A stretch of 64,000 nt of DNA from an uncultured bacterium (lineage in GTDB: Bacteria; Chlamydiota; Chlamydiia; Chlamydiales; SM23-39): assembly GCA_963716985.1 (NCBI GenBank), contig OY970323.1, positions 896,001 through 960,000 on the forward strand, given 5' to 3'. How positions within the stretch are numbered: position 1 is the first letter of the stretch; each line of letters begins with the position of its first letter. Of this stretch, positions 15,714 to 39,391 are shown in pieces. Position numbers and translations under genes: made by a program. Below the pieces are notes generated by a model, which was given only the letters and a program-made list of their open reading frames with translations, ran no database searches and was not told where the DNA came from.

Positions 15714-18590
15714 TCACTTCTCCAGAATTTCACGAATATTAGTAGCTATTTTGAAATTGACTCCAAGAGCTTCGAAATGAGCTTTCCCGCAATCAGTCTT
15801 TAAATTTTCGGTCTCTCTTCGTTTGGATGCATCATGCGTGCTTTTAGTTTCACGGATAAGATAGAGCTTTTCGTCGTCTTCAATGGCAACGGCCCAATCT
15901 GGATTATAATTTCCAAGAGGAGTGGGAACGATAAATTCCCTTGGTAATTTGCAGAAGAATTTAACGCGTTTATTGGAATCAAGACCTTCAGCTACTTGCC
16001 GCTCCAGTTCTGAATCAAAAGGAACGCAGTCGTAAGGAGTGCGATTGTCTTTGCTTTGTATTTCGTAAAGATTGTTCAAATATCCAATGATCTCTTCATG
16101 CTGAAAGAGCCTCATCTCATAATATTGATCCTCGATTTGTTCGTACTTGATCCCTTGGGATACCGTTTCATGAAGGGTGCGGGTTATTAGTTTGGCTATT
16201 TGGGACATAAAAGCTTGTGGATTGATTAAAAAATCCTGCAGCCGTCCCGATTGCTTGAGAATTTCTACAAGAGTTCCTCGTGTTAGCTCAGTTTCTCGCT
16301 GGAGAAAAGCAAGAATGTCTGGCAAGGTATAAGAACTGGTGACCATCGCAGTTTTGCTATCGAGAACTCGTCCGCATTCTACGCCTGCTTTATTAATTTC
16401 GATTTCAGTTTTGTCGATTAGAATGCTGATAGGTCGGATAGCATCCATTTTGTGGATTTTTGCAACGGCGCTTCTGATAAGATCTTTAGTTTCAAACTCT
16501 ACGAAGTAGCGGGTTTTTTTAGAAATTTTCTCCCATAGAATTTTAAAATCTTCGTTCAATTCAATTTGCTTGTTGTATTTGAGAGTTCGACGCTCTCTTG
16601 TATTTACGATACGATCTTTGAAAGTATGCCGTTTCAGTTCATCGATAATAGTTGAGGACATATGTTGAAGTGCTTCGGGCAGTTCAAGCTGAAATCCGGG
16701 CTTTTCTGGTGCAAATTTGTCCGTGATACGGCCTTGTTTGTCGATATAGCCTTGGTTTTCAAGGGCAACCCAAATTTCTTTGCTAATAGCACCATTAAAG
16801 AGAGAGCTGAAAGTGATTGGCTCAATACGTCCAAACTTAATCCCCAGATCATTTTCTATATCTTCTTGAAGTCCCTTGGCATAATCCTGAAAGGGCTCAC
16901 TTGCGATCACAGTCAATCTATTAATTGCATCATCATGGATACGGTCACCGCAGTGGTTTACTGGCAATCTAAGCCCTCTTCCAAGGGTCTGACGCCGTTC
17001 TCGTTCTGCGCCCATATCTCGTAAAGAACAGATCTGGAAAATATTTGGGTTATCCCACCCTTCTTTTAGGGCAGAATGGGTGAAAATAAATCGCAAAGGT
17101 TCTTCTTGTGAGAGCAAGCGCTCTTTATCTTTCATAATCAGCTTGTAGGTGTCATCATCTGCTTTGGTTGATCCATTAGTGTCCACTATTTGATTCTTCT
17201 TGCGATCGGCAGAAAAATAACCATCATGGAGCTTTTCAACATCAAAAGGAATCAGACCCGCATAGATGGGCCTTTGAGAGATTTTTTGATAAGACTCTTC
17301 AAACCACTGTGCAAATTTCCCCTTTTGAGCTTTACCTTGGTCGTCATACAAACGGTAATGTGCAACTTTATCGACGAAGAAAAGGGACAGCACTTTGATT
17401 CCTTTGTCTTTTAGTCTGTATTCCTTATGGAAATGTTCTTCAATAGTTCGATGGATTTGCGCTTTGAGCAGCTCATCACCCATCCCGCCCTCTTCTTGCT
17501 TAACATGAATGATTTTTCCATTGGAAAACTCAACTCGTTCTAGCCCCTTTTCGGCAGAAATATTTGCCACGATGTAACCATCATAGCCGGGTCGATCTGT
17601 ATGAGCGCTTACGTTGGTACCTTGATACAGGGTGATCTTCTTTTCTTTGGAGTCATCATCGAAAATTGTCGCTTTGGCATGGGGTGTTTTTGCTCCTTTT
17701 GCGTAACCGATCTTATCAATTCGTAGAAAAACTCCATTGAAGTTGTTTTCTGTTCGAACAGAATCCACCTCTATTCGTTTGACGAGCCGCATATCATAGG
17801 CGCGAATAGGATCAAGTTTGTAGAGCAGGTTATAAGGAGTCAAATGGGTCGCAGAATAACGAAGACAAAAGAGAGGATTCAAGGTTGTGATTGCCTGTCT
17901 CGCCTTGTCCGTGTTGTCTACGCTTTGTGGTTCATCGATAATTACGATCGGACTCGTGGCTTCAATATAATCGATCGGCTTCCGTCCGGACATCTTGTCT
18001 TGTTCCTGATTGATAATATTTAGCTCTTTTTGAAAAGCCTGAATATTAATGATCATGATCTGGATGCTGTTATTCAGCGCAAATTGACGAACGCGGCTTA
18101 AATCGTTTGAGCTATAGACAAAGTGGTCAAAAGGAACTTTATCGTAAAGGTTATCAAAATGGTCGCGCATTAATGCAATGGAAGACAGTACCCCTTCTCG
18201 AACCGCAACAGAAGGAACAACAATCACGAACTTTTTGAATCCATGCTTGTGATGCAACTCAAAAATGGTGCGCAAGTACACATAGGTTTTGCCCGTTCCT
18301 GTTTCCATTTCTATTGAGAAATGAGGAGTGCCATTACTTTTTTCAATTGCGGAAGACTTAGGAAGGCGATTTCGCTCTTGAATCGATTGCAAGTTATTCA
18401 GCAATAAATCATTGCACATCAGGCAGTGATTCCCAATTCCGAGCTCCTGAAGCAGTTCACCCTGTTTTCGTGCAAAATGAATATTTAATGAGCCCTGCAT
18501 TGTTATTGGGGGCAGTCCTTCGAAAAGGTCTGTAACCGATTGAATCGCATCGAGTTGGTATGAGAGCCCCGCATCAAATTTCAATTTCAT
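15714..18590 (-). CDS. res: Type III restriction endonuclease subunit
   Basis: METGTGKT, DEPQ, EGWDNP, and a C-terminal NPDW...ETK nuclease motif. Confidence 0.93.
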   Translation of the reverse strand: MKLKFDAGLSYQLDAIQSVTDLFEGLPPITMQGSLNIHFARKQGELLQELGIGNHCLMCNDLLLNNLQSIQERNRLPKSSAIEKSNGTPHFSIEMETGTGKTYVYLRTIFELHHKHGFKKFVIVVPSVAVREGVLSSIALMRDHFDNLYDKVPFDHFVYSSNDLSRVRQFALNNSIQIMIINIQAFQKELNIINQEQDKMSGRKPIDYIEATSPIVIIDEPQSVDNTDKARQAITTLNPLFCLRYSATHLTPYNLLYKLDPIRAYDMRLVKRIEVDSVRTENNFNGVFLRIDKIGYAKGAKTPHAKATIFDDDSKEKKITLYQGTNVSAHTDRPGYDGYIVANISAEKGLERVEFSNGKIIHVKQEEGGMGDELLKAQIHRTIEEHFHKEYRLKDKGIKVLSLFFVDKVAHYRLYDDQGKAQKGKFAQWFEESYQKISQRPIYAGLIPFDVEKLHDGYFSADRKKNQIVDTNGSTKADDDTYKLIMKDKERLLSQEEPLRFIFTHSALKEGWDNPNIFQICSLRDMGAERERRQTLGRGLRLPVNHCGDRIHDDAINRLTVIASEPFQDYAKGLQEDIENDLGIKFGRIEPITFSSLFNGAISKEIWVALENQGYIDKQGRITDKFAPEKPGFQLELPEALQHMSSTIIDELKRHTFKDRIVNTRERRTLKYNKQIELNEDFKILWEKISKKTRYFVEFETKDLIRSAVAKIHKMDAIRPISILIDKTEIEINKAGVECGRVLDSKTAMVTSSYTLPDILAFLQRETELTRGTLVEILKQSGRLQDFLINPQAFMSQIAKLITRTLHETVSQGIKYEQIEDQYYEMRLFQHEEIIGYLNNLYEIQSKDNRTPYDCVPFDSELERQVAEGLDSNKRVKFFCKLPREFIVPTPLGNYNPDWAVAIEDDEKLYLIRETKSTHDASKRRETENLKTDCGKAHFEALGVNFKIATNIREILEK

Positions 18591-18602
18591 AAGCCAATCT
18601 CC

Positions 18603-20525
18603 TTAGATCGTTCGGAATACATCTTGATTTCCTCCGGATCTTCGAGAAGAAAACGCATGCATAGCATTCGCTTTCAATTGGTCATTGCCTTTGAATGCAT
18701 GATCGAGACAGATAAATCTTTCGGGATCGGTTGCTGCAACAGCTTCAATGAACTCTCTTGTAATTTCCGATTCCAGACAGATCATCAGCACACCATCTCC
18801 AATAGAATAGACTGTTTTTCCAGCTATTTGCTGTTTCTCGATTTTTGCAGTAGGTAGATAGCCTGATTTCAGAAGCAATTCATAAAGAATGTCTTCTTGA
18901 GACGCCTTGGGATCGATATGAGGGATATGTCCTTCAAGCTTAAGGAGTAGTTCGTTTATAGTTATTTGAGAGGTTGGTTCCCATATCTTGAAGTTGGATT
19001 TATCGAGTTTTAAGACTTTAAAGCCTAAATCGAGATTTGGTTGATCCCCCATCTCTTGCTTGATTTTGTTAATCACCCGGCGGATTCTCTCTTTTCCTAT
19101 ATCTGCAATTGTAGTGTAACCGGCTTTATAGGCATCAGATTCTGGTGCGCATGGTTCTGGCAGTTGGACCATGATGAATTTTCGGTTGCCAGCATCTTCT
19201 TTATTCATATCCAAAACAGCATGGGCAGTAGTGCTCGAACCAGAGAAAAAGTCTAAAATAATATCATCTTTTCCAGTGGCGCCTTGCTCAATCAAAATTT
19301 TCAGCAAAGAAATTGGTTTGGGAAAGTCAAAAAACTTGCCCTCCAATAAGGATCGGACTTCTCTACTTCCGTTTAAAGTATATCCCACATCTTCTGCCAA
19401 AACTGATGAAAATCCAGTTTGATTACTTGATAATTCAGATAAAAATTTCTTTTCTCTTGGCCTGCCGTCTTGTTTTTTGGGAAAAATAATCCGATTATCT
19501 TTTATTTTTTCTTGTAATGTTTGATGAGAGTATCGCCATCCACTATCTTGGGGGGGAGCAAATTTCCATCCAGTTTTTGGATCTTCTATTTTAAAATGAA
19601 GGTTAGGTCTTTGAGAGGCATTTGCCAGTCCAAGTATACTATTGCTCATCCATGCTCCTCTCGGGTCATTATCAGGATTAGTATATTTTGACAGATCAAT
19701 GTCTTTTCCTCGAAGTGCGGAGGTTTCAGATCTCTTTGAATAAACCACAATGTATTCATGATCAATTGAAGCGTTACTTTGATTGCGGCTATCTACAATT
19801 TGTCGACTTTTCCAAATGAAATTTCCTATGAAGTTCTCCTCTCCAAATACCATATCGCAAAGTTTTCTTAGGTTAACCATTTCGTTATCATCAATTGAAA
19901 TGAATATTGTCCCATCTTCGCGAAGTAAATTTCTTGCTAAATACAGGCGTGAATACATCATATTCAGCCACTTGGTATGAAAGCGGCCTTCGTTAGCGGT
20001 ATTTGTGGAAAATTTCTTTCCCTTGTCGTCAACGAATCCAGCATATGCAAGATAAGTGTCGAGAGATTCTGCAAAGTTATCGGGGTAGATAAACTCTTTT
20101 CCAGTATTGTAAGGAGGATCGATGTAGATCATTTTGACTTTACCGAAATAGGACTTCTGAAGCAGTTTCAGCACTTCAAGATTATCGCCCTCGATAAAGA
20201 GATTTTCAGTAGTGTCGAAATTAACAGATTCTTCTCGGAATGGCTTTAGAGTTGCAAGAGATGGTTGCTGAATAATCTTTAAGCATTCCTTTTTTCCAGG
20301 CCAATCCATCCCATAGCGTTCTTTACGGCCCTCAAAAAGATCGCTAAAGGTTCCGAGATCGGCTTTTAGTTTTTCAAAATCGATGGATTCAATCAGGTTG
20401 CCTTTTTCATTTAGAGTCTCAGTAAAAACAGAAGGGAAAAGAGCTTTAAGTCTTTTTATTTTTTCAGAATCTATAGTCATAGATTTTAAATCTATTTTGC
20501 TTTGTAAATTTGTGCCTGTATTCAT
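18603..20525 (-). CDS. mod: Type III adenine DNA methyltransferase
   Basis: IEGDNL, IYIDPPYN and DFFSGSSTT motifs; adjacent to res. Confidence 0.94.
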   Translation of the reverse strand: MNTGTNLQSKIDLKSMTIDSEKIKRLKALFPSVFTETLNEKGNLIESIDFEKLKADLGTFSDLFEGRKERYGMDWPGKKECLKIIQQPSLATLKPFREESVNFDTTENLFIEGDNLEVLKLLQKSYFGKVKMIYIDPPYNTGKEFIYPDNFAESLDTYLAYAGFVDDKGKKFSTNTANEGRFHTKWLNMMYSRLYLARNLLREDGTIFISIDDNEMVNLRKLCDMVFGEENFIGNFIWKSRQIVDSRNQSNASIDHEYIVVYSKRSETSALRGKDIDLSKYTNPDNDPRGAWMSNSILGLANASQRPNLHFKIEDPKTGWKFAPPQDSGWRYSHQTLQEKIKDNRIIFPKKQDGRPREKKFLSELSSNQTGFSSVLAEDVGYTLNGSREVRSLLEGKFFDFPKPISLLKILIEQGATGKDDIILDFFSGSSTTAHAVLDMNKEDAGNRKFIMVQLPEPCAPESDAYKAGYTTIADIGKERIRRVINKIKQEMGDQPNLDLGFKVLKLDKSNFKIWEPTSQITINELLLKLEGHIPHIDPKASQEDILYELLLKSGYLPTAKIEKQQIAGKTVYSIGDGVLMICLESEITREFIEAVAATDPERFICLDHAFKGNDQLKANAMHAFSSRRSGGNQDVFRTI

Positions 20526-21802
20526 TAAAAACCCTCTTCTTTATCTTGGTTTTTTGTTCTTTTGTGTTTTTTTAGACTAATATCTCCGAGCCATTCTTTA
20601 AAAACTTTTACGAATAAATTAATTTTGAATTTTAAATTGCCAATTTTAGTTTTCAGTTTATTTTGTTCTGAGAAAAATTGCTGCACATTGATTGTTTTAA
20701 CGTGAGAAAACTTACGGTTCGCACCATAATTTAGACAAATTATTGTTCCAGGGCATAAAGGGAGATTCCATCCTGTAACTTGCTGACTAAGTTCTTTATG
20801 AGTACCTTGACAAAGGGCTAATCGCAGCTCAATGCTCTCAATCGGGTCGCATGTAACGCAAATTACTTCTCTTCTTTTTGAGTCACCTTTCATGCTGCCA
20901 CTAGAAAATCCATATATCGCAAAATGCATGAGTTTTATATCTAGTAAATCGCTATTGGGCTTGAAGGCCCAATTATATTGTTTTACCCACATTTCTAGTC
21001 GTCTGATTTGATATAAATTTAATAATCTCTTTAAACCGCGAAGTTTTTTGTTTTCGTGTTTTAAATGTTTAAGACGAAAAATATGATTTATAAAACGTCT
21101 GTGTAGAATTAGCCTTGTGAAGGGCGCGTCGGAATTAATAAAATGTTGGTTATGATAAGTAGCAAACAAACAGTCATAGAATTTTTCTGCCTGCAACCAC
21201 GTTTCATTCGCAATCTTATCTTCAATCCACTCTGGGCACTCCCACAAAACAGGAAAGACAACTAAACGATCCCATAAAAGATTCCACTCAATTAATTTAA
21301 GATGATTCTCTTTAGGATCACAAATCATTTTTCCAACACGATAAAAGGTGTTGTTTAGGAGTTCAGTTGACTTTTTGTTGCCAACAAAATTACAACTTTC
21401 CTGATACAATGTATTGAGATTTTCTTTTGAAAAGAACTCGTGAGATCTGATGTTTTGAAGCATTTCTTTGGATATTTTATCAATTTGATCGGCCAGCTTT
21501 TTTCCATCAGAAAATGCAGCTAGAGGAATGGAAACTCCCTTATAAATAGTGATTTTTTCCCAGATCGTTCCCTTTCCAATGCGCTCAAGGAACCCTTCTA
21601 TTGTAAAACAAGGATCGAATCCGTTTTCAAAAATAGGATTTAAATTACACAATAAGTCAGAGAGTTGATCATAAATTGCTTCCTGTCCTTTTTTAGATAT
21701 AGGATCTACGACATTATCATCGAAGAGAACTAGAGGTGAAATGACATCTGTCTTATCCGCAGAAGGGTAAGGGTTTTTAATATTTTTAGTTTCTATGCTC
21801 AT
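20525..21802 (-). CDS. AT-rich hypothetical protein, possibly a PIN-like ribonuclease
   Basis: 425-aa ORF coupled to the mod start (TAATG). Acidic motifs LVLFDDNV, IEGFLE, SDLLD and VTCD occur in PIN-like order. Confidence 0.55.
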   Translation of the reverse strand: MSIETKNIKNPYPSADKTDVISPLVLFDDNVVDPISKKGQEAIYDQLSDLLCNLNPIFENGFDPCFTIEGFLERIGKGTIWEKITIYKGVSIPLAAFSDGKKLADQIDKISKEMLQNIRSHEFFSKENLNTLYQESCNFVGNKKSTELLNNTFYRVGKMICDPKENHLKLIEWNLLWDRLVVFPVLWECPEWIEDKIANETWLQAEKFYDCLFATYHNQHFINSDAPFTRLILHRRFINHIFRLKHLKHENKKLRGLKRLLNLYQIRRLEMWVKQYNWAFKPNSDLLDIKLMHFAIYGFSSGSMKGDSKRREVICVTCDPIESIELRLALCQGTHKELSQQVTGWNLPLCPGTIICLNYGANRKFSHVKTINVQQFFSEQNKLKTKIGNLKFKINLFVKVFKEWLGDISLKKHKRTKNQDKEEGF

Positions 21803-21828
21803 TTTACCTTTTCAAATCCATACATTCT

Positions 21829-24666
21829 TCAAATCAGTTTCCACCGGATGGTGAAAAGAGTTTGTTCCTCAACATTTTGTTTTAACCTAGCCTGGGTTTG
21901 ATCGATCAGGCCATCTTTTTGTCTATCGATTCCTCTGACAGCTTCATCATACTCTCTCCATGCGGAGTCCCTCTTTTTCTCGAGTGCGCGTAAATTTCTC
22001 TGGATTGCCAACTTTTCAGGAAAATTGAGAGCTGTCCGCACCTGTTTTTTTAACTCCGTAATTTCGGTATCATAATCATCCAGTGTAGTTTTTAGCGACT
22101 GCCGTTTATCGTTGGCCCAACGGTCAAGTTTGTCCATCTCTTCTTGGAAGAAAACGCCGCTTTTCTCAGATATAGTGGAAAGGAGATCGGCTTTCATGCG
22201 CTGATAGGCTAAATCGATGAGATGATTAGGAATAGAGGAACAGCCTCGAACATCGGCCGGTAGATTAAAGAGTCGACGAGCTTGGTCTGCATCTAGTTCG
22301 TTGCCATTATCAGTTAAAGCGATAGAGAGAATGTGGTCTTCGGAGTCAAGCGTATTGATGATTGTCAATTGTTTCACTGCAAGGATGCCGGAATGTCCAA
22401 TAAGAGGCTCCAGGGCTGATATTTTCCTTCCATGCCCTGTGTAGTAGAAAGTAAGCTCGGCTAGGGGGAGCTGCTTTTCTTGCGCTGAGCTAAGAACCCA
22501 GTGTGCAAGAGGGTGCTGGCTTCGATAATGGTAGCCAGTAGCGTCTTGTCGTTTGAGTGTGTAGAGGCCGGTTTGAATTCCCGGCTGAGGAGATGTTTTC
22601 AGTGTAAATGCGAGAGCAGCTTCATTGAAAACAGCTTGTTCTTTGAGGATGTGTTGCGTGGTGTCCCAGAGCAGAGCCTCGTAGAGACTGAGAGATTCAG
22701 TCGTTTTTTCTTTATAGATGTTAAGTTTTTCTGCCACCTCCGCATCAAAATTCTCCAAAAGCTTTTGTCGTGTGGACCGCATATTCTCGATAATCTCGGC
22801 ACTGAGGTCGTGTTGCAAAGCGTCGAAGGCTGATTGGATGTCTTCTTTTTTTCTGCAGGTTTGGTAAATGTCGGCTATCCGTTTTTCAAAGTCGATTCCA
22901 GATTCAATACTACCAAGCACTTCGTCACTGGCTCCAAAAACACCGTTGAAAAGACGGAATTTTTCAGAAAGAAGTTGATAAACCCGTTGATCAGCGGCGT
23001 TGTTTTTGTTGAGGAAATTTACTACTACAACATCGTGTTTTTGGCCGTATCGGTGACATCTGCCAATTCGCTGCTCAATTCTCTGGGGATTCCAAGGAAG
23101 GTCATAGTTGACTACGAGGGAGCAGAATTGGAGGTTGATTCCTTCAGCTGCTGCCTCAGTGGCGATCATGATTTTGGCTTTTTCGCGGAAATAGTCGACA
23201 AGAGCTGCTCGGGTGTCGGCAGTTTTTGAACCTGTAATTTTATCTGTGCCACTAAAGCGAGATTCCCATTCGGTGTAAATACTTCGTGATTGTCCATCGC
23301 TATTAGAGCCGTTAAAAAGAACGAGATCATCAGTATATCCATTTTCTGAAAGGAGCTTGACAAGGTAGTTTTGAGTTCGGCGAGATTCAGTAAAAATGAT
23401 TGCTTTTTCTGCTCCACCGAGCTCTCCTGTCATTTGAAACCCTATTTTCAGGGCTTTGAGAAGCGATTCTCCCTTTGCGTTCTGAGTGATTTTCATGGAG
23501 AGGTCAAAAAAGCTTCGCAGTTCTAGGATCTCTTCTTGTATAATTTGTCGCTCTTCTGACGTGAGGGGCTGGGGTAGTTCGTCATCATCGATTTCTAATT
23601 CATCTGCCAATTCTTCAAATCTCTCAAAATCTTCTTCAAAAGATAGATCGGATTTTTTGTCGTTTTTAAGACGCTTTTCGAGCTTGTTGATGAGAGACTC
23701 TAAGGCCCCGGCAATGGCAAATGTCGACGATGCAAGTAATCTGCGTAAAACGAGTGTCATCAAGCTACGTTGACTTGACGGAAGAGCCTGAAGATTGGGG
23801 CGACAAAGATAGTCTGAAATCATGTCGTAAAGAATTTCTTCATCTTCAGTGGGTATAAATTCTTCAGTGTGAGCTTTCCTCTCGGTATATTGGATGTATT
23901 TAAGCACTTGGCGTCGAAGGGTGCGCTTACAAATCTTATTGAGACGGTTTTTCAGATCATCGAAATTATCTTCAGAAGTAAGCCTTGCGAACTGAGATCG
24001 GAAGCTTTTTAGGTCGCCAAAAGTGTGTACGTCAATGAAACTGACTAGCCCATAAAGCTCGAGCAGTGAGTTTTGAAGAGGTGTGGCAGTGAGAAGGAGT
24101 TTGGGCGCATGTTCTGTTGCCTGTTTTAACTCTCGAGCAACCTTGTTCCCAGTTTTATAGACATTGCGGAGGCGATGGGCTTCATCTATAACGATGAGGT
24201 CCCATTGAACAGATTTGATGAAGTCTGCTTTATTGCGAGCGAAGGAATAAGAGCAGATGACGATTTCAGAAACATCGAAGGGATTGCATTCGCCTTCTTT
24301 AATGACTTTTTTAAAAGAGGAAGTTTCCAAGATGATAGAGGGGAGATAAAATTTTTCTTGGAGTTCTTGATGCCATTGCTTTCGTAAGCTTGAAGGAAGA
24401 ATAATTAAAAGTTTTCGTTTTCGCTCAGCCCATTTCTGAGAGAGGACGATCCCGGCTTCAATGGTTTTCCCAAGACCCACTTCATCGGCAAGGATGGCAC
24501 CTTTAGAAAGAGGAGAGCGAAAAGCAAATAAAGCTGCGTCTACTTGGTGAGGGTTTAGATCGACCTGAGAATCCATTAAGGCTGCTGTAAAACGTTCCAC
24601 GCTATCCGATGGACAACGTCGGAGCAATTCATAAGCAAAAAGCTTTGCGTGGTAGTCCGTAATCAT
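21829..24666 (-). CDS. SNF2-family helicase/ATPase with C-terminal coiled coil
   Basis: LADEVGLGKT, DEAH, TATP, EGINLQ and QRIGRCHRYGQ. The ATG at 24666 overlaps the nuclease stop (ATGA). Confidence 0.93.
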   Translation of the reverse strand: MITDYHAKLFAYELLRRCPSDSVERFTAALMDSQVDLNPHQVDAALFAFRSPLSKGAILADEVGLGKTIEAGIVLSQKWAERKRKLLIILPSSLRKQWHQELQEKFYLPSIILETSSFKKVIKEGECNPFDVSEIVICSYSFARNKADFIKSVQWDLIVIDEAHRLRNVYKTGNKVARELKQATEHAPKLLLTATPLQNSLLELYGLVSFIDVHTFGDLKSFRSQFARLTSEDNFDDLKNRLNKICKRTLRRQVLKYIQYTERKAHTEEFIPTEDEEILYDMISDYLCRPNLQALPSSQRSLMTLVLRRLLASSTFAIAGALESLINKLEKRLKNDKKSDLSFEEDFERFEELADELEIDDDELPQPLTSEERQIIQEEILELRSFFDLSMKITQNAKGESLLKALKIGFQMTGELGGAEKAIIFTESRRTQNYLVKLLSENGYTDDLVLFNGSNSDGQSRSIYTEWESRFSGTDKITGSKTADTRAALVDYFREKAKIMIATEAAAEGINLQFCSLVVNYDLPWNPQRIEQRIGRCHRYGQKHDVVVVNFLNKNNAADQRVYQLLSEKFRLFNGVFGASDEVLGSIESGIDFEKRIADIYQTCRKKEDIQSAFDALQHDLSAEIIENMRSTRQKLLENFDAEVAEKLNIYKEKTTESLSLYEALLWDTTQHILKEQAVFNEAALAFTLKTSPQPGIQTGLYTLKRQDATGYHYRSQHPLAHWVLSSAQEKQLPLAELTFYYTGHGRKISALEPLIGHSGILAVKQLTIINTLDSEDHILSIALTDNGNELDADQARRLFNLPADVRGCSSIPNHLIDLAYQRMKADLLSTISEKSGVFFQEEMDKLDRWANDKRQSLKTTLDDYDTEITELKKQVRTALNFPEKLAIQRNLRALEKKRDSAWREYDEAVRGIDRQKDGLIDQTQARLKQNVEEQTLFTIRWKLI

Positions 24667-25391
24667 TCGAGCACACCATTTGCGGCAAGCCGATAGGAAC
24701 AAAGGCTGCAAGAGGGGTTGGGTTCTGGCGGGTGTTCTGTTGTTAGGGCGGAATGAATCTCAAGTAATTTAGGCTCTATCCAGCTGTCATCGCCAAGATA
24801 GGGGATGACTGAGATTTCGAATTTCAGGCATTCGCCAAATTCAGGAACGTCTTTCTTGCCATTGCAGTAGATGAAATAGCCGGTGTGTGAGACTTGAAAA
24901 CCGTTTTTCCTGAATAGCCATTGGTAAATTTCCATTTGTCTTTTGTAGCTAAGCTGCCAGTCGGCATCTAAATTGATTTCGCCCGCCTTGCTGGTTGCTT
25001 TGTAGTCTACGATGATCAGTTCTCCGGAGGGAGTGATCCAGACGTCATCGATGGCCCCCGTAACTAAAAATCGGGTCGGTTCGTGTAAATAGGAAATGCC
25101 CTTCTGATTCTTTCGCCATTCATCCAGTTTTTCATGTTGGAAGGGGATTGCGTCAATCTTGTGCTTGATCATCAGGGGATGAGCCTCTCCCTTTGCTCGA
25201 TAGAGGTCGAATTCCTTTTTCAGAAGATGGTCAACAGCAGAGTTTAGGTTGAACGGAAGTCCTCCAGGTTGCGCAACTCCAAGTTTGCGATCGAGGTAGA
25301 AGCAAAAGGGACATTCACAAAAAAGCTCGATCTTTGAGCGGCTTAATTTGAATGGTTTTGTGTCTTGAGGATCAAAGCCCTTTCTTTTCAT
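24663..25391 (-). CDS. Cas4/RecB-like PD-(D/E)XK nuclease
   Basis: LSRSKIELFCECPFCFY, GAIDD...VDYKAT, QMEIY and C-terminal CSLCSY. Confidence 0.88.
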   Translation of the reverse strand: MKRKGFDPQDTKPFKLSRSKIELFCECPFCFYLDRKLGVAQPGGLPFNLNSAVDHLLKKEFDLYRAKGEAHPLMIKHKIDAIPFQHEKLDEWRKNQKGISYLHEPTRFLVTGAIDDVWITPSGELIIVDYKATSKAGEINLDADWQLSYKRQMEIYQWLFRKNGFQVSHTGYFIYCNGKKDVPEFGECLKFEISVIPYLGDDSWIEPKLLEIHSALTTEHPPEPNPSCSLCSYRLAANGVLE

Positions 25392-25600
25392 TTTCTTCCA
25401 TTTTAAGTTGTTGATTTAACGTATAATAAGATAGCAGGATTGCAAATAAGATGATATTGTGATTTTTCGTCAATTAAACTATTTTATTTGAATTCCGCAA
25501 GATGGCTGTTTTAGGGAAAATGACTGAAATGCAGAATATTTTTAGGATGTTCTAAATCAATGTGTAAGGGGTGACCTCTGCATCCAAGCGGATGCGCATT

Positions 25601-26853: not shown

Positions 26854-26903
26854 AAGTGGGGCAACCTGGACTTGAACCAGGGACCGACGGGTTATGAGTC
26901 CGC
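26854..26903 (-). other. att core: 3' half of a tRNA with CAT anticodon (Ile2/Met type), not a full tRNA
   Basis: The minus strand reads GCGGACTCATAACCCGTCGGTCCCTGGTTCAAGTCCAGGTTGCCCCA. The D-arm and 5' acceptor strand are absent. 48/50 identical to 44711-44760. Confidence 0.88.
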
Positions 26904-27016
26904 GGTGTCCCTTCTATTGGCAACAATTCGCAATAACTAACAGAAGAAGTTTAAACGACTTGGAGCATTTCAATCTATGGCAATCTTTGGTGGCATGTTG
27001 TCTTTTTTAGTGCGTT

Positions 27017-28478: not shown

Positions 28479-28709
28479 GAGATCCTCTCATGCCAATTTT
28501 TTCTATTTAGACAGATTTGGCAATCTTCTGATTTCATGCTTCTGAAATCAGTTTTCCATCAAAGAATATATTACCCATCGTTGCTTTTTGCAAGAGGGTT
28601 CATTTGGGGTGTGAAACGTGTAAGAGGTGTTTAGGCAGGATTAACGATTTGATTCTGAAGTGAATGTGAAAAACACTTGAATGCACACTTATGATGCTGC
28701 GAGGTAAGC

Positions 28710-29279: not shown

Positions 29280-29359
29280 GATACTTCCTTTTTTCCCTTT
29301 ATCGAAATCATTAGGGAAAACACCTGGTTTTAACAGGTGCATCCAATGCGGATTGTATC

Positions 29360-30118: not shown

Positions 30119-30127
30119 ATTGTTTTC

Positions 30128-32719
30128 CTATGATTTCCAGGTAAATTTTGCGATTAGTCCCTCAAGAGATGCTGAAAGATCAACAGAATCATGGGGGATT
30201 AAAAGATAAAGCCATGGTTTAGTAGAGTGTTGCTTAGCATGTTTGCTAGCCAGGTTGCACCAGTGAGTTGCTGCTCGAGCTTTTTGAATTACTACTGGGT
30301 CCTGAAGATCGGAGCTTCTCTTAATTTCACAAAGCAAGAATTTTTGGTCGGTTTCGACAACAAAGTCTGGTTCATATCCAAAATCTGGGTGATAAAAAAT
30401 TTGGAAAACACCTCGAGGAGGCTTTACCCATTTTATCACAGAGATGTCTTGCTCTAGGATACATGCAAATACTCTTTCGGAGTCCGAATCAAATTTTGTT
30501 ATTGGGTAGATGGATTTCCGAAAACCTGAGAACAACAGATTCTTAATTGCAGATTTCTGATCAATAGGTAAGTCAAATGGTTGCGGATCTTGCCCAACAG
30601 GAACTACGTAACGAGCACTCTTTAGAAATGTGAAATCTCGAGCTACTTCCTCGGAAAAACGTTGCTCTGGAGGATCAAAGTGGGCTTGCATTTGCACATG
30701 GATAAGATTAACTAAAGAAGTTTTATGATTGAGTAACACATTTTGTACGTCATTCTCGTTTTTGAGATAGGATCGTAAATGAGCAATCATCTGCTCAGCT
30801 AGAACAAGGATGATGGGTAAGTTCTCTTCAGTATCGGCAATATCATCGAAGTCCAAAAGAGCATTGGCTAACATGTGTTCTGGCGACTCAAGAAATTCGA
30901 AAGGATTTTCGGTGTTTAGGTTTTCTCTAGAACCATCCTCGAGACTTTCCATTACAATTGGATGAGCGATTGTCTGTGGAAAAACATTATCTAATTTCAG
31001 AGAGAATGGGTGATAATAGCCTGGTTTGATCACTTCTAGCTCAACATGAATTCGAGGGATTTTGATTGAAAGCGCTTCCTGTCTTTCTGTGGTCTTTTCA
31101 ACGATCTTTTTGATCTCTTGTTTTTTAACCTCGTCGGTTTCTCCCAATTCTTCTGTTACTTTTTCCAGGAGCTCCTCTTTTCGCCCAGTACCTATGATTT
31201 CGATCTGTTCAAGAGTCTTTTCAGCGATTTGGCGATCAACTTCGTTCAGCTTTGTTACTTCCAGGACAATGGAAGGCGGTATATCCACATTCTTTGATCC
31301 TTCGGGGGGTATATCTACCCCAATGAGGAAGCCTGATTTAATTATTGAATCGGGACGTTTAGCTTCATTAATGATTTCATCAAATCGGTCATGGGAGACA
31401 ATTGTTAATCGATCTATTTCGGTAATACCCGTTCTGCAACCATAAGGTAGACGAAGACCTCTTCCGAGAGATTGCTCAATCAACGTTTTTGAATTTGCAG
31501 CTCTAAGAGGAACAATTGTATAGAGATTAACGACGTCCCAGCCTTCTTTGAGCATATTCACATGGATAACAATTTCGGTTGGATTATCAAATGACTCGAC
31601 CTCGAGAAGATCTTTCACCATTCGTTCTTCTTCATCTGCCTTTATTCCTGAATGGACAACGCGTACCTTGTTTTTATATCGACCCTCGAAGAATTCATCA
31701 CTTTTGATAATAGTTTCGAGTTCATTGGCATGGGTTGTGTTTTGGGCAATAAGAAGCATAAAGGGCTTGATAGCTTTCTTGCCGGATTCATAAGCGTAAT
31801 TTTGAAGAAGAATTTTTGTGTGCTCGTGGATTCGAACCCCATCTTCAATTTTAAGTTTTTCGAGAGCCTGTTCATCATATTCGGAAGCTTTAAAGTTGGC
31901 CCTACCTCCGACCCAAGGCTCTTTAACAAATCCATCTTTTAGAGCTTCGGAAAGTGGATATTGATAAATGATGTTCTTGAAGGAAAGGGTTCGATTTCCC
32001 ATTTCTATTTGAGGCGTTGCGGTAAGCTCTATGCCGAGAATAGGTTTTAGCTCATCAATAGCTTTAGTTGCAGCAGGAGCTCTGTATCTATGAGCTTCGT
32101 CCATTATAACAACCAGGTCCTCGAGCTGTGCTAAATATTCGAAATAGCTCATGCAGTTAACAATTGTTTCGCGAGGATTTTTCATTCTTCGGTTATCAGA
32201 ATGGATCATTGCGATATTGAAAATGTTGATGTGGACTTCATCACCCTTTAAAAAATCAGTTTGTTTAGCATAGCGGTTGCGTATACCTATCCCTTGCTCA
32301 AAGTTAGCTTCGGTAATGATTTGGGGAGGTTTTGTAGCGAATTCAGCAATCCCCTGAAAAACGTACTTGGAGTTACTGGGGTTTGAAAACTCTCTGATGA
32401 GCTTTTCTGCAATCGTGTTATTTGGGGCTATAATGAAAAAGTTACGGAGACCTTTTACTGTGGAGAGGTAAGCGATCATTGCTCCCATCAGGCGTGTTTT
32501 CCCAACCCCTGTGGCTAAAGCAAAGCAGATGTTGGGGAAATTTCTTTCGAAGTCAGCGACATTGCTGAATTTTTCTTTGAGTAAACTTAAGGCCTTAGGA
32601 ATATCACTTTGTTTTTTCATTGGAAGACGATCTGCCAACCAAGCAAGAGCTTTCATTGAAAGTACTTGTGGTTGTCGCAAGCTCATTCTATCGCAAATCT
32701 GTCGTAAGTATTGGATCAT
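30128..32719 (-). CDS. res: Type III restriction endonuclease subunit (second, divergent)
   Basis: LATGVGKT, DEAH, TATP, EGWDV and YEPDF...EIK. Confidence 0.9.
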   Translation of the reverse strand: MIQYLRQICDRMSLRQPQVLSMKALAWLADRLPMKKQSDIPKALSLLKEKFSNVADFERNFPNICFALATGVGKTRLMGAMIAYLSTVKGLRNFFIIAPNNTIAEKLIREFSNPSNSKYVFQGIAEFATKPPQIITEANFEQGIGIRNRYAKQTDFLKGDEVHINIFNIAMIHSDNRRMKNPRETIVNCMSYFEYLAQLEDLVVIMDEAHRYRAPAATKAIDELKPILGIELTATPQIEMGNRTLSFKNIIYQYPLSEALKDGFVKEPWVGGRANFKASEYDEQALEKLKIEDGVRIHEHTKILLQNYAYESGKKAIKPFMLLIAQNTTHANELETIIKSDEFFEGRYKNKVRVVHSGIKADEEERMVKDLLEVESFDNPTEIVIHVNMLKEGWDVVNLYTIVPLRAANSKTLIEQSLGRGLRLPYGCRTGITEIDRLTIVSHDRFDEIINEAKRPDSIIKSGFLIGVDIPPEGSKNVDIPPSIVLEVTKLNEVDRQIAEKTLEQIEIIGTGRKEELLEKVTEELGETDEVKKQEIKKIVEKTTERQEALSIKIPRIHVELEVIKPGYYHPFSLKLDNVFPQTIAHPIVMESLEDGSRENLNTENPFEFLESPEHMLANALLDFDDIADTEENLPIILVLAEQMIAHLRSYLKNENDVQNVLLNHKTSLVNLIHVQMQAHFDPPEQRFSEEVARDFTFLKSARYVVPVGQDPQPFDLPIDQKSAIKNLLFSGFRKSIYPITKFDSDSERVFACILEQDISVIKWVKPPRGVFQIFYHPDFGYEPDFVVETDQKFLLCEIKRSSDLQDPVVIQKARAATHWCNLASKHAKQHSTKPWLYLLIPHDSVDLSASLEGLIAKFTWKS

Positions 32720-34451
32720 CTTGATATTCCTTGTGCTGCCATCGGGACGGTTACTCTTTCACCTGAAGAGGATCCTGATATTTTTTTTCTACGCTTGTTG
32801 GCAGTCTTAGCTTCTGATTCTAGGGCAATTTTAAGACTATAATCATCTCGCCCCCATTCACATCGATTAAGGATGGCTTTTGGGATTTTTTTAATCGTTA
32901 AATTGGGAAATTCCTCTGCATTGGAATTGAATGCTCCACAGTAAATAAGAAGTGTTCGATTAGGGCCAACTTCATCGCTTAGTCGTGCGAGTTGAGCTTT
33001 GCTGAGGATTGACGAAGTTACGTGGATAAAATCCCGTTCAGTTGAATAACCATGCATCCACCAAGGATCACGCTTTTGGCTGAAAGTAAATCCCGAATGT
33101 AGGCACATAGCCTCAGCGAGCATGACAGGATTATACTTTTTACTAATGCACCATCTTCCTAGTGCTCTGTCATAGTTAAAATTTAGGATTATAAGTTTGG
33201 CAACGGTCGGCATAAACTCAAGTCAATTTATCCTAAAATTAAAGGGTGACAGAGCACTAGTCGATTCTTTTCAAGTAAAGAGGGGGCAAGTTCGCAGTAA
33301 CGAAAGCCTCCACCTCCATCCCAATTTGCGGATTGAGTAATACCGCCTTTATCTGTGCCATCTATGACGCGTTCAAGCCGAGGAATAATATGAGTGTGAC
33401 AATGCTTGCCGAGCTCAATCATAATCCAGCGGCGACCCATTTTGTGAGCTACGGCACCAGTAGTTCCAGAACCGGCAAAGCAGTCTAGAACGAGATCGTC
33501 TGCATTTGTCGAAATTTGCAGGATTCGTGCAATTAATCTTTCTGGTTTTGGTGTTATAAAACAATCTTCTGAATTGATTTTTTTTACTTCATTTTTAGCT
33601 TCTGAGTTATCTCCGACTTCTAGCCGTTTCCATAGGGTTGTTGGGACCAGGCCATCTTGGACATCTTTTAGAAATCTTTTCATCATTGGAAGGGAATCAT
33701 TCTTTCCCCATATTATTCTGTTTTCTTTAATCATTTTTTTAATATTGTCTTCACTATATCTCCAATATCTACCTCGTGGCCTCTGGAGCACAATTCCATT
33801 AGGTTTTTTTATTACATAATCAGCAGAATAATAATTTCTTGCATGGATCGGATCTTTTTTCCAAGGACCTCTAGGGTCTTTGTCTGGATTTGAATATTTA
33901 CTTGTCGATTCGCCTCGCGGCATTAAATTCCTTTCCCAATTTTCTATTGATTTTGCATAGCAAAGAATAAAGTCATGGGAACTGGATAGATATTTAGAAG
34001 AATTTTTTCTTGTATGAACTTTTTCCCAAATTATTGAAGAAACAAAGTTTTTTCTGCCGAAAATCTCATCACACATCACCTTAAGATAATGGCATTCGCC
34101 ATCATCGATACTGATCCAAATCGACCCGTCTTCGCGCAATAGTTTTTGCATAATCATTAAGCGCTCTTTCATCATATTGAGCCAAAGAGAGTGCTCGAAA
34201 TTATCATCGTAATGTTTGAATAGGCTTTTAGTGTTGTAAGGAGGATCGATGTAAATGCACTTGGTCTTGCTGGCATAATCACGTTCGAGAGCTTTCAGAC
34301 CCAGTAAATTGTCACCGTAAATCAAAAGATTGTTGTTGATGCCCTTTTTCGAGGATTTATAGATCTCTTTTTCAAGTAAAATACGAGGCTCAGGGGATTC
34401 CCATTTTTCTTTATCAGGCCACATCAATTCTAACTTATGCTTAGGGGACAC
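32716..34451 (-). pseudogene. mod: Type III methyltransferase interrupted by a MITE (545 aa when repaired)
   Basis: IYIDPPYN and DCFAGSGTT. Removing the 98-bp insertion joins the 407-aa and 165-aa ORFs in frame as LLEKNRLGRWCISKKYN. Confidence 0.88.
33163..33256. mobile_element. 94-bp MITE with CTAG (or TA) target duplication
   Basis: ctag|tgctctgtca...tgacagagca|ctag; the TIR extends to 22/27 matches. Confidence 0.88.
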
Positions 34452-36070
34452 TAGACTTTCTCCATGGTTTATTTAAGAGCCCAGTTAATCGTAAAAATAG
34501 TTTCTGATGTCACGGATGGCTGAAGTCGCTTTTCTAGGCGCGAGATAAGGTCATCCCTTTGAAGTTCGATACGATCTTGCTCGGAAAATAGGGTGCGACG
34601 TTTAGCGGTGCGTTGGGATTCTAGGTTTTTGATCTTTTTTTGATTTTCGAGTTTTTCAGCGAAGGTCTTAGATAGAGCTGCAGCTTTTCTAGCGGCTCTA
34701 ATTTCTTTTTCAAGGTCTTTTAATTGATGTTCAAGACCTAATTTTAGGTCTTCGGACCAGGCATCGAGCTTTTCTACCTCTTGATCATAGAGACCTGAAG
34801 CTCTGGCTTCTGTTTGTTTAAGATATCTTTGTTGATGCTGGTCCCTTATTAAGGCGAGTTGTTGGAGTACATTGGTTGGGTCGCTAAAATTGATGACTTT
34901 TGCCTGGAGCTGAAAGAGTTTTTCGCATATTTCTGGATCTAAGATTTCGCCTGAGTCTGTAAAGGCACTTAATAGAAGAAATTCCTCTGAATCAAAGGTC
35001 TCGACGCGGAGTCGGCTCAATTCAAGCCATCCTGACTGGCCAATAAATGGCTCTAAAAGGGAGATCTTGTTTGGATAAGAACTATAATCGAACTCGATAT
35101 GTTGCGTAGTCAGGGGACGGGAAAGAGCTTGATTGATGAGTTTCTGTGCAAAAGGATCATCTTCGCGAAAGAAAGATCCTCCCCTTTCTTCAGCCTGTTT
35201 CCAATTAAGAAAATAATGAGTTCCTTCAATAGAGAAAGAAGGAGCAGTTGGAATTGGAAGCCCTAGCTCATGATAGGTAAGACTTACAAGCCAACGCTCT
35301 CGTTCATTTAATGAGGATTCTGTTTCGCTTTTACGAATTTTTAGACGAGAGGAGACTACCTCGTCAAAATTGTCGAATATACTTTCACGGGTTTGTTTAA
35401 GCTTGGTTTGGATTTGTTCGTCCAGTTCATGCTGAAGGGTGGCAAAAGCTGTCTTAATTTCTTCACTCGTTCGACAAGTTTGATATACTTGGCTGATTCT
35501 CTTTTCAATATCGACTCCCGATTCGATAACACCCAAAACATCATCGCTTGCACCAAAGACCCCATCAAATAGATGGAACTTTTCATCAAGAAGCTCAAAA
35601 ACTCGCTGATCAGCTTCATTTCGTGTGTTAAGGAAATTCACGACAACAACGTCGTGCTTTTGCCCATATCTGTGACAGCGTCCGATACGCTGCTCTATTC
35701 TTTGTGGGTTCCAAGGGAGGTCATAATTGACAACAAGAGAACAAAATTGAAGGTTGATTCCCTCAGCAGCAGCTTCTGTAGCTAAGAGTATTGTTGCTTT
35801 GCTTCGAAAGTGATGAACCAGTGCTGCTTTAATGTCGATGGCTTTTGAGCCCGAAGATTTAGACCCTTCAGGTTGATTTTCTAGCCAGTCCTCATAGATA
35901 GCTTTAGAAGATGGATCGCTATTAGAGCCGTTGATTAAAACAAGTTGGTCTTTATAACCTCTCGTAGAAAGTAAATCATAAAGATAGGCTTGAGTCCTTT
36001 TAGATTCGGTGAAGATGACAGCTTTGCGAGAGGCTCCCAATTGTTGCGCTTTGTCAAAGGCTTCATCTAG

Positions 36071-38047
36071 CCCGACTTTCCTAGTTACGAAATACAAAAA
36101 TGAAAACATTCCCCCACAACTATGTTTGGGTCAATTTTTTTTGCGATACGCTGTCACCCTAAAACAGTTGAGCCTTATCTTGCAGCCTGAGGATGTTTAC
36201 CAGCTTTTGCTGGATTCCTGACATCCTTGTAAGCGTTGTCTCTGTTTTATCTTTGGTTCCTTTGTGTTTGGCTAATTCGTAAGTATTTACAACCTCATTG
36301 ATTCTTCCCAGCTCAGTCTCCAGCCGTTTGTATGATATATTGATTCCGGCTGCTGCAACTCTTCGCTGTAGCGTTTGCCGAAGAAGTAGCGCAATGGAAC
36401 AGTATAAGGCGTGCACCTTAATATGAGCGTCTATCCAGTGATAAAGCGGCCACCAGGTCCCGGTAGCGCGATCCTTGGTTTTCTTGAATATGCCTTCCAC
36501 CAAGTATTGGCTGCGATAAGCTTTGATAATCCTATCTGTATCCCATTCGTGCCTTGTCGTTACGATAATAGTCTTACCAAGATAAGTATCCTCCAGCTTT
36601 GCGAGGGCCTCTCTATCAATATGATATTGCAAAAATGGCACTCCTGTCGTGTCATCTAACGTTACCTCAGTTACTATTACACGGGAAAGAAACTGTCTGT
36701 GCAGTTTGTCCTTGCACTGATTCTCGATACTGGTCTTGGTGGGCTTTTTTCCCTTCGTCACGAGGCCATTCCGCCGATCATTCAATTTCTTTTGCAACTC
36801 TTGCAGCCCATCTATAGCGTGCGTGATATCGTTTTGTAATGTTTTGCGCTGAGTATCAAATAATTCCGGATTGTAGGTGGTTATTGTGGTGAGAAGTATG
36901 CCGCTCACGCGCTTCTTCTTTCGTAGGGCTTTGTTTCCAAGAAGATCTTTGTCCTGACAGGGTCGCAATACTCCGCTACTGTTAGAGATAGCGGCTAACT
37001 CTGTGTGCTCGCCAAGCTTGACCGAACCTACAAAATGAAGCTTCGCCAATTTCAAGAGTTTAAAGTTGTCTTTCGAATTATTTCCCTTGTCAAAGATTAT
37101 CGTTACTTCCGGCTTGCGTGACACTCCAAAGGTGATTTTCAGGAACTTGTCGAATCTACCAATAACATCCAGAAACTCCTTAGCGTCGTTCCGGTTACCC
37201 TCATATACATCATAGTAAAGAGGTATTTGACCGTCGGCGGCGCAAAAGAGTGAATAGCTGACCTGGCGTAGATTGTCCTGGCCCTGCTTATTCTTGCCTC
37301 GCTTGGCAATAGAGCATCGTTCATTGAATGTGTCGATAAAAGTATAGTAGTTGGTGCCGTCATAAGAAATTGATGCCGGATCGATGTTTTCTCTGGTAAT
37401 GACACCCTTAAGAATGGTCGTCCAGATCTGTAGGCATTCTTCGTGACCAAACCGTCGCATATGATCCCAGAATCTCTGAGAACAGAGGCTATCGGCAGAA
37501 GCTTGGGGAACATATCGCACAAGTGCAGTTTCACGGAACCACTGCCACATTGAATTTTTGCTGCTGGCCTGAATCGCTCTATTGAGTGCTGCAATGAGTA
37601 TATACTGTCCAATCGTCAGTCCTTGTGATCGTTTCATGCAAATATTATCGATAATCGCAATGACCTCGGCCCGTCGAGCTTCAAGCCACAGAGCGGTTAT
37701 AATGCCCCACTGGAATACCTGTGCAAACAATGGCTTGCGTCCCGAGCCCTCCACCGCTCTTAGAATATCCTCTGCCTTCCCTAAATACTTTTGCCACACC
37801 CGACGTGGCTTCCCATCAACTCTACGCCATTCGCAGGCGTAATAGTACTTATGACCATTTATTACCTTAGCTTCCACCTGAGCCATACGACTCCTATTCT
37901 TATAGGATTTCTATTTTAGGGGGACACCATACTGGAAAGTCAAGGTAAAAAATTTAGGGTGACAATATTAGTCGCAAAAAAATGCCCTCAGATAATCCTG
38001 TAAGGGCAAATTAGGATGAATGAGTTTGTCTAACTAGGAAAGTCGGG
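36071..38047 (-). mobile_element. IS1634-family insertion sequence, 1977 bp
   Basis: Perfect 17-bp TIR cccgactttcctagtta at 36071-36087 and 38031-38047; CTAG duplicated at 36067-36070 and 38048-38051. Confidence 0.92.
36159..37886 (-). CDS. IS1634-family DDE transposase
   Basis: N-terminal GHKYYY...RRVDGKPR...YLG; catalytic YDGT, FDKG and VEGIFK. Confidence 0.88.
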   Translation of the reverse strand: MAQVEAKVINGHKYYYACEWRRVDGKPRRVWQKYLGKAEDILRAVEGSGRKPLFAQVFQWGIITALWLEARRAEVIAIIDNICMKRSQGLTIGQYILIAALNRAIQASSKNSMWQWFRETALVRYVPQASADSLCSQRFWDHMRRFGHEECLQIWTTILKGVITRENIDPASISYDGTNYYTFIDTFNERCSIAKRGKNKQGQDNLRQVSYSLFCAADGQIPLYYDVYEGNRNDAKEFLDVIGRFDKFLKITFGVSRKPEVTIIFDKGNNSKDNFKLLKLAKLHFVGSVKLGEHTELAAISNSSGVLRPCQDKDLLGNKALRKKKRVSGILLTTITTYNPELFDTQRKTLQNDITHAIDGLQELQKKLNDRRNGLVTKGKKPTKTSIENQCKDKLHRQFLSRVIVTEVTLDDTTGVPFLQYHIDREALAKLEDTYLGKTIIVTTRHEWDTDRIIKAYRSQYLVEGIFKKTKDRATGTWWPLYHWIDAHIKVHALYCSIALLLRQTLQRRVAAAGINISYKRLETELGRINEVVNTYELAKHKGTKDKTETTLTRMSGIQQKLVNILRLQDKAQLF

Positions 38048-39391
38048 CTAGAGCAGACACAAGAGCTTCTCCTTTGGAATTAATGCGAATTTTTTCGACC
38101 AGTTCTAAGTAGCTCCGAAGTTCAAGAATCTCTTCACGAATTTTATCATGGTGGACTTTGGTTTCCTCATCTTGTGGAGGCAGAAGATTTTCTTTCCATT
38201 CTTGGCTGATCGTTTCTAGTAACTCTATTTCTTGAGTGTCCAACAGCGCTTGAGCGCCTGCTTGTTTTTCTAGCCTTCCAACTAAGACGCGTAAAGTATG
38301 TGCGATAGCGTAAGAAGAGGAGGCTAAAAGCTTGCGTAAGATGAGAGTGATGAGTTCTCTTTGGCTGTTTGGAAGGGCATATAATGAATCTTTTTGTAAA
38401 TAAGCTGAGAGTCCTTCATAGAGTCTTTGTTCATCATCACTAGGATCAAATTTCTGAGTAATCGCAACTCTATTAGTGAAAGGGATGTATTCTTTCACTT
38501 GTTTACGTAAAGTACGAGTAACAACAGGAGCAATGCGCTCTTTTAGTTGTCTATTGCGCGATTCCTCATCCTTGGATTGAACGAATTGTTGTTTAAAAGA
38601 GTTTTCATCTCCAAAAATGTAAGGATCGATAACGCTTACGAGGCCGAAAAGTTCCATGAGGTTATTTTGTAGAGGTGTTGCTGTCAGTAAAAGCTTCGGA
38701 CGGTCTTTCAGAGCAGTAGCGATGGCTCTTGCTTGCTTGTTTCCGCTTTTGTAGACATTGCGAAGACGGTGCGCTTCATCGATAACGGCAAGATCCCATG
38801 AAATCTCTGAGATTAAATTTTCTTTTTCTACTGCAAACTGATACGAACAGATCAAGACTTTCTCGTCGGAAAGGAAGGGATTACCATTTCCTTCAGTTCG
38901 AGCATTTTGAAAGGTTTTGGAATCAAGAACCGCAGCGGGTAGAAAAAATTTATCTGCTAGCTCTTGCTCCCACTGTTTTCGAAGGAATGCTGGTACGATC
39001 AAGAGAATTCGTCTCTTTTTTTCTGCCCATTTTTGAGCAATGACAATACCAGCCTCGATTGTCTTCCCAAGGCCCACTTCATCAGCAAAAATGACTCCTT
39101 TAGATAGGGGGGATTGTAAAGCAAACAATGCTGCGTGGACTTGATGTGGATTGAGATCTACACGAGCATTAGCAATTGAGCGCGAAAGATTATGCACGCT
39201 GCTGGATGCATTTTTTAACGTGAGGGCATATGCCCAATATTTGCTGTGAAAGTCTGTCATGCTTTTTATATCCTGATCCCGAAAATAATATATAATTAGC
39301 ACATTTAAGTTAATTTAAATTAATTGCTTAAAATGAGTTAAATAATTATTGCGATGTAAAATTCTTGTTTAATAAGATTATTATACTGATT

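Follow-up and report, generated by a model that had tools for sequence, protein, structure and literature searches.

Restriction-modification (R-M) systems of Type III methylate one strand of an asymmetric site and cut DNA 25/27 bp away in an ATP-dependent manner, and for this cutting the restriction subunit Res depends on the methyltransferase subunit Mod. In a variant found in more than 500 genomes, a gene for a conserved helicase-like ATPase lies 5' of mod (Murray et al., 2021; PMC8259958). The two characterised systems of this kind, Eco86II and BspHIV, perform N4-methylcytosine (m4C) modification, and the extra ATPase of Eco86II was dispensable for methylation and undetected in the cutting fraction; the DPPY motif of Mod cannot tell N6-methyladenine (m6A) from m4C (PMC8259958). 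Here, we describe two cassettes, A and B, in a window of 64,000 nucleotides (contig OY970323.1, positions 896,001 to 960,000) from an uncultured bacterium of the Chlamydiota (SM23-39), each of which encodes a SNF2-family ATPase, a Mod, a Res and a PD-(D/E)XK nuclease. The close homologues that carry a name come from Chlamydiales and Rhabdochlamydiaceae, and the bacterium is most likely an environmental chlamydia. A previous sequence-only reading of the window had reported two such cassettes with the same four gene types, tightly coupled and in differing order, which annotation, coordinates and intergenic gaps confirmed. The nucleases (58% identity, 240 aa) and the SNF2 proteins (46-51% identity) are paralogous, as that reading had also stated, and the Mod (36% identity over 357 aa) and Res proteins (33% identity, only 114 aa alignable) are divergent. 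It had further proposed that SNF2 and the nuclease form one accessory module retained across different R-M cores, in a candidate under-described defence system. Our analyses point instead to what is very probably a known core with a swappable partner.

As judged from its sequence, the three-gene core of both cassettes is already known and corresponds to the Type III systems with a 5' ATPase. It shares with the Eco86II/BspHIV group the ATPase-mod-res order, a beta-class DPPY Mod and a Res with helicase and PD-EXK motifs, and differs from it by other Mod and Res classes, by the added nuclease and, in cassette A, by a PIN-like gene. For the three-gene core, this match with a published system (PMC8259958) is an outcome that the sequence-only reading had itself named as refuting its proposal. 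Escherichia coli NCTC86 has a locus with the SNF2-mod-res order, which we take to be Eco86II from the strain, the gene order and the single Type III system stated in the paper rather than from a locus tag. SNF2-A and SNF2-B share 45% and 43% identity, respectively, with the NCTC86 SNF2 (each over 965 aa) and Mods A and B share 25-26% identity with its Mod over approximately 390 aa, while Res A and B had no BLAST match with its Res at E 1e-5. Classical Type III systems (EcoP15I, EcoP1I, StyLTI) likewise consist of Mod and a Res with all motifs, and Res A matches PRK15483 over its full length, yet with 337 bits for a cut-off of 564; the cassettes differ from them by the extra SNF2 and nuclease genes. 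DISARM class 1 systems have a core of drmA, drmB (DUF1998) and drmC. The best profile for the cassette SNF2 was DrmD_b (NF038318, PDLC02619). The DrmD scores stayed below the curated cut-offs, with 720 bits for 950 (NF038318) and 268 bits for 610. Since these cut-offs were not reached, DUF1998 (PF09369) had no match in the 99.5% complete genome and neither DrmB nor DrmC had a match among the 21 proteins of the region, DISARM was ruled out.

This SNF2 family is widespread, with 43 plasmid records and at least 602 matches in species genomes. Outside the phylum, our survey covered the 79 loci returned from these species-genome matches. Mod and Res were found at 54 of them, and at 46 of the 49 loci for which at least 8 kb of downstream sequence was available. 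One to three genes, including AIPR, SMC-like ATPase and Schlafen-like genes, separated SNF2 from mod in 28 of these 46 loci; RhuM, GmrSD and YhcG genes were located elsewhere in such operons. All six plasmid loci viewed (of the 43 records) also had Mod and Res. On the SNF2 tree (68 full-length rows, those below 850 aa being left out), the family accompanies three Res classes, which are intermixed. The proposed retention of SNF2 across different R-M cores thus stands, whereas its joint retention with the nuclease does not, as detailed below. The family also occurs behind an AAA_5 ATPase, a DUF2357 protein and an 833-aa unknown gene, which replace mod-res (L228:11378-19787, genome G162); Mod and Res are likewise absent from loci L161 and L205.

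The nuclease is not specific to the SNF2 system and adjoins many kinds of restriction systems in the phylum. In a sample of 400 genomes of the phylum, 42 contained the nuclease, and all 45 loci outside its own genome were examined. Neighbour counts cover the first 40 loci, 39 of them distinct (L147, identical to L131, was dropped), and five further fragmentary loci were counted apart; genome G065 was unscored in the phylum scans for the nuclease, SNF2 and N6_Mtase. A methylation-based system lay within about two genes of the nuclease at 30 of the 39 distinct loci (77%). The partners were Type I systems (14 loci), this SNF2 (8), MmeI-type systems with a helicase (4), DUF1156 with PLD-SNF2 (2), Hma (1) and a Type II system with Vsr (1); the eight SNF2 loci comprised four complete ones, three cut by contig ends and one without detectable res. 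Four of the five fragmentary loci were also near methylation-based genes. In its own genome, all four copies of the nuclease are near R-M genes, and the two extra copies are divergent to Type I hsdMSR operons without SNF2. Overall, the nuclease takes three different layouts relative to R-M genes. A PADLOC PDC-S14 (DUF4357) gene separates the nuclease from the restriction genes at L117:8808-9647, L131:7275-8120 and L118:10372-11229, a position common to the SNF2-Mod-Res and PLD-SNF2 operons. L131 and L147 are the same contig of 11,460 bp, which is present in the assemblies of two genomes from different families (G289, G007), probably through binning carry-over.

Trees of both proteins support partner exchange. 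Partner types are scattered on the nuclease tree, from which the split or fused nucleases L144-L146 were left out, and 14 changes are needed to explain them. The ten SNF2-linked nuclease rows were rejected as one clade (approximately unbiased test, p-AU 5.7e-7); this group was defined by neighbours, though after a first tree had been inspected. The nuclease-linked SNF2s fall into three separate SNF2 clades, each beside nuclease-free SNF2s of other phyla. Within the clade of nuclease A, the nuclease gene overlaps the gene that follows it by ATGA at nine of nine loci; the follower is SNF2 at four loci and Type I hsdR at the other five. The ratio of nonsynonymous to synonymous substitution rates (dN/dS) in this clade is 0.03-0.14 over 11 pairs. 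The sequence changes over between SNF2-linked and hsdR-linked copies only in the final codons of the nuclease gene. Kin loci are not independent, and a genome-level Fisher test was given no weight. We consider it highly improbable that SNF2 and the nuclease are one helicase-nuclease module, similar to AddAB or DrmD, in a four-gene defence system. The nuclease does lie within 5.1 kb at 11 of the 14 SNF2 places of the phylum (two of them its own, two on identical contigs) and beside all three of those SNF2 clades, the ATGA overlap joins both genes in cassette A, and fusions of UvrD and Cas4 accompany Type III R-M systems (PMC5704561). Within the phylum, SNF2 is thus usually near the nuclease. 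Beyond it, the link fails: a nuclease profile built from 28 sequences had no match at the 79 SNF2 loci of other phyla, nor at seven plasmid or viral SNF2 loci. Since, in addition, the trees are incongruent, with the partners of the SNF2-B clade coming from three nuclease lineages, and the same overlap is made with hsdR, a joint module is unsupported.

The nuclease family has invariant catalytic residues D115, D129, K131, Q152 and Y156 (D, DxK and QxxxY motifs) as well as four invariant cysteines in two CxxC pairs (C27/C30, C228/C231). Its structure model (predicted local distance difference test, pLDDT, of 90.7) matches the folds of Cas4, AdnA, RecE, MGME1, Exo5 and lambda exonuclease, with a tie at Z 11-12 among the first six matches. 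The match with Cas4 8d3l (Z 12.0, root-mean-square deviation 4.0, 184 residues aligned) is tied with those of 3l0a, AdnA and RecE, and when the sequences of solved structures were searched with the nuclease profile, a single marginal match resulted. The modelled fold and the motifs thus place the nuclease in the RecB/Cas4/lambda-exonuclease superfamily. CRISPR Cas4 proteins have a 1+3 cysteine pattern, unlike the 2+2 pattern observed here. The earlier label of a cysteine-bearing, Cas4-like nuclease is therefore right as to fold and cysteines, with the qualifications that the cysteines form two CxxC pairs and that the TIGR00372 (Cas4) cut-off of 65 was not reached (27 and 38 bits). Because cas1 (PF01867) also had no match in the genome, a CRISPR-adaptation Cas4 was ruled out. 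Hudaiberdiev et al. (2017; PMC5704561) describe UvrD-Cas4 fusions as ancillary components in Type III R-M as well as Dcm/Vsr contexts, and solo pfam12705 forms as common in the candidate phyla radiation (CPR). The Pfam family and the idea of an ancillary nuclease across methylation-based systems are shared; the nuclease described here differs as a free, unfused 240-aa domain with CxxC+CxxC, paired with six system types. A literature search of incomplete coverage found no paper on this nuclease/R-M pairing. The available portions of a BREX preprint and of the Hma paper do not describe the arrangement, and SNF2 and Cas4 have no occurrence in the available portion of the EcoSal R-M review. One 753-aa protein (L145:8548-10806, genome G041) consists of two tandem copies of the nuclease domain.

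On balance, we lean toward reading the cassettes as two tRNA-Met elements with the published SNF2-Mod-Res system and a separate nuclease partner that would degrade restriction-cut ends. Mod would methylate one strand of host sites and Mod2-Res would cut unmethylated invading DNA, as the intact motifs and Eco86II (PMC8259958) suggest. For SNF2, the likely role is that of a DNA translocase driven by ATP, which may assist in vivo, for instance through the removal of proteins or the resetting of complexes. The nuclease, with the predicted fold of an end-loading exonuclease (Cas4, RecE, AdnAB, lambda Exo), would chew the breaks made by the restriction enzyme to which it is coupled, and its partners could be swapped while the coupling stays because it would process the breaks of any such enzyme. 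This role of a finishing exonuclease is plausible, and we hold it with reserve. More speculatively, chlamydiae might have recruited a 240-aa Cas4-like exonuclease of ultra-small bacteria to act as a plug-in booster and a fixed anchor for swaps of R-M cassettes. It is equally tentative that such a booster could serve any methylation-based defence (Type I, Type II, Type III with SNF2, MmeI, PLD-SNF2 or Hma), finishing the cut DNA while its coupling is preserved.

Several observations weigh against this reading, beginning with the inferred identity of the NCTC86 locus as Eco86II. The nuclease was found within 7 kb at only 17 of 59 N6_Mtase places, so that R-M systems do not need it, and this Type I link is looser than the link with SNF2 in the phylum (11/14). 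No R-M genes were nearby at 9 of the 39 phylum loci. In metagenomes, the best 80 of at least 589 nuclease loci, many of them on short contigs, were mostly among housekeeping genes, with Type III genes near four of the 80 and this SNF2 near none. Viral contigs, with two nuclease loci and one SNF2 locus, were uninformative, and the one plasmid with the nuclease had no R-M genes annotated within 8 kb. The nuclease may be an independent single-gene defence, or a neutral passenger that shares island hotspots and is functionally untied to R-M. Those nine loci, the 42 N6_Mtase places without it and a huge stand-alone family (at least 8000 candidates scored) are consistent with this idea, as is the frequent embedding or clustering of defence genes mentioned in the available part of a preprint (bioRxiv 2024.01.29.577857). 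Nevertheless, we regard it as unlikely, since 77% of the loci adjoin methylation systems, in three layouts, and since a translational overlap has persisted across a swap of partners.

The sole matched control for that adjacency is the integrase family of element A (7/20). Both cassettes are preceded by a tyrosine integrase and by a copy of the 3' part of tRNA-Met. Integrase A recurs at 21 other places of the phylum sample with ≥76% identity, including one in the same genome. According to a reference set and Pfam, R-M genes were present in seven of seven elements with this integrase and the nuclease, and typical R-M genes in none of the 13 without the nuclease, whose cargo is sugar, transport, modification or other genes. 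This control also has points against it: the seven cases all come from one nuclease clade and are therefore not independent, a helicase-methyltransferase fusion occurs in two of the 13 controls, and one of the 13 ends at a contig edge. These 13 sibling elements rule out the nuclease as element backbone. They also bear on a further explanation, which we find rather unlikely, namely that the nuclease serves the element or the host by resection or repair of self-inflicted restriction breaks on entry of the element into an unmethylated host, or by acting as a homology anchor for the exchange of R-M cargo. Such a service would fit the tied fold matches, which include RecE, lambda Exo and AdnAB, as well as the sequence switch in the last nuclease codons, the first place of the nuclease in the operon of element A, the metagenome loci among housekeeping and repair genes, and the role in defence or repair proposed for solo-Cas4 of small genomes (PMC5704561). 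However, the siblings exchange other cargo without any nuclease, and at many loci the nuclease is last in its operon or divergent, with which an early protective role fits less well.

Cassette A is the intact copy (15714-25391, minus strand; Table 1). Its genes are ordered nuclease, SNF2, a 425-aa open reading frame (ORF), mod and res, with intergenic distances of -4, 26, -1 and 12 bp, the first being the ATGA in which the nuclease stop overlaps the SNF2-A start. The motif order of Mod A is that of the beta class, with motif IV (DPPY, 136) before motif I (FSGSST, 427), and Res A has superfamily 2 (SF2) helicase motifs and a C-terminal PD-(D/E)XK motif. The 425-aa protein had no match in Pfam, PADLOC or NCBIfam and none in a Foldseek search. 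Its best Atlas match was 'PIN domain' (0.90, recognition low), and several VapC chains aligned over approximately 130 residues at Z 4.1-4.9 only. Residues D28, N30, D285, D288 and D319 are conserved, and a PIN fold interrupted by approximately 250 residues of helices is a likely, if tentative, assignment for the family. The family is small (9 homologues). Like the genes that separate SNF2 from mod at loci of other phyla, the 425-aa gene is embedded between the two; a relative, locus L111, has another gene in its place. The 425-aa gene is a defence candidate. A promoter scan gave no signal (27 sites for 26.5 expected).

Cassette B, also on the minus strand, runs from SNF2, which starts at 39260, through mod, which starts at 34451, to res and the nuclease, with distances of 17, -4 and 9 bp. 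The gene types and order given by the sequence-only reading were correct; it had overlooked that the cassette is broken twice, by IS1634 within SNF2 and by a miniature inverted-repeat transposable element (MITE) within mod, each flanked by CTAG on both sides. Read across the insertions, the frames have no stops (SNF2-B, 936 aa; Mod B, 545 aa), and Mod B has motif IV (DPPY, 69) before motif I (FAGSGT, 325), as in the beta class. Res B retains SF2 helicase motifs and a C-terminal PD-(D/E)XK motif. Cassette B is likely inactive, because Type III cutting needs Mod and mod is split. The 102-bp MITE has 29 near-identical full-length matches in the genome, some in tandem; it and IS1634 both duplicate CTAG, yet their terminal repeats differ. 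The sequencing runs listed comprised six low-share DNA runs and no RNA run; the four DNA runs examined gave only scattered short contigs.

Table 1. Features of elements A and B (window coordinates)
Feature	Position	Strand	Basis
att (attachment) copy, 3' part of tRNA-Met, start of element A	26854..26916	-	87% repeat of 44711-44773
Tyrosine integrase, element A	25601..26695	-	PF00589
PD-(D/E)XK nuclease A, pfam12705 (Cas4/RecE/lambda-exonuclease fold; CxxC+CxxC)	24663..25391	-	family match, motifs, structure model
SNF2-family ATPase A, intact, ~945 aa	21829..24666	-	PF00176+PF00271; NF038318 720 bits (cut-off 950)
Embedded 425-aa gene, likely PIN/VapC fold with large helical insert	20525..21802	-	weak structure-level matches
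Type III Mod A, beta-class, DPPY at 136	18603..20525	-	PDLC03634 E 8e-212; motifs
Type III Res A, PRK15483-like	15714..18590	-	PDLC03647 E 1.5e-288; Walker A, DEPQ, PD-EXK motifs
tRNA-Met-derived att copy, start of element B	44711..44780	-	repeat of element A copy
Tyrosine integrase, element B	43488..44588	-	domain match
DUF927 (Cch-like helicase) backbone gene, element B	39493..41844	-	domain matches
SNF2 ATPase B, split by IS1634	34469..39260	-	51% and 46% identity of its halves to SNF2-A; frame open across the insertion
IS1634 family element, CTAG target duplication	36067..38051	-	NF033559 over cut-off; inverted repeat; 3 identical genome copies
Type III Mod B, split by MITE	32716..34451	-	two pieces match consecutive parts of PDLC03636
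102-bp MITE, CTAG ends	33159..33260		31-nt inverted arms; 29 full-length genome matches
Type III Res B, frame intact, class other than that of Res A	30128..32719	-	PDLC03648 E 2.4e-177
PD-(D/E)XK nuclease B	29360..30118	-	58% to nuclease A; invariant catalytic and Cys columns kept
Schlafen/AlbA_2 + RecG-C protein, end of element B	27120..28478	-	domain matches

Both elements belong to a tandem array of tRNA-Met-targeting elements (genome 858780-970107) that includes window positions 12289-52000. The six att copies of the genome are spread over 858.8-970.1 kb, with a fuller tRNA-Met of 75 nt at genome positions 970033-970107. In this recurring family, two facing integrases flank a cargo slot (window 25601-26695 and the trio at 12289-15614), and the cargo of related elements includes R-M, sugar fermentation, RND efflux, APH/GNAT/ABC, LysR/transporter and AEP-TOTE genes. 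At window positions 12289-15614 and 48646-51965, an integrase is followed by proteins of 242-270 aa and 348 aa without a Pfam match, which are conserved at the far end of elements of this family. Short tandem repeats (14937-15090) occur in the protein of 348 aa. Element B also has unknown ORFs at 28710-29432 and 42284-43495, and a counterpart of the former follows the nuclease in loci L115, L131 and L132. Elsewhere in the window, a class I aldolase is fused to glucose-6-phosphate isomerase (59642-62320).

The supposed four-gene system resolves into a core of three genes that is already published and a passenger, and bench effort is therefore saved. Since 2021, no function has been assigned to the additional ATPase of such Type III systems, and the intact cassette A offers a ready test case. 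As this cassette is compact, one clone would cover both the nuclease booster idea and the Type III SNF2. If our reading of the nuclease is true, a system-agnostic nuclease that stays coupled through changes of its restriction partner would reveal how restriction is brought to completion once the first cut has been made, and a very large family of uncharacterised nucleases would receive its first function.

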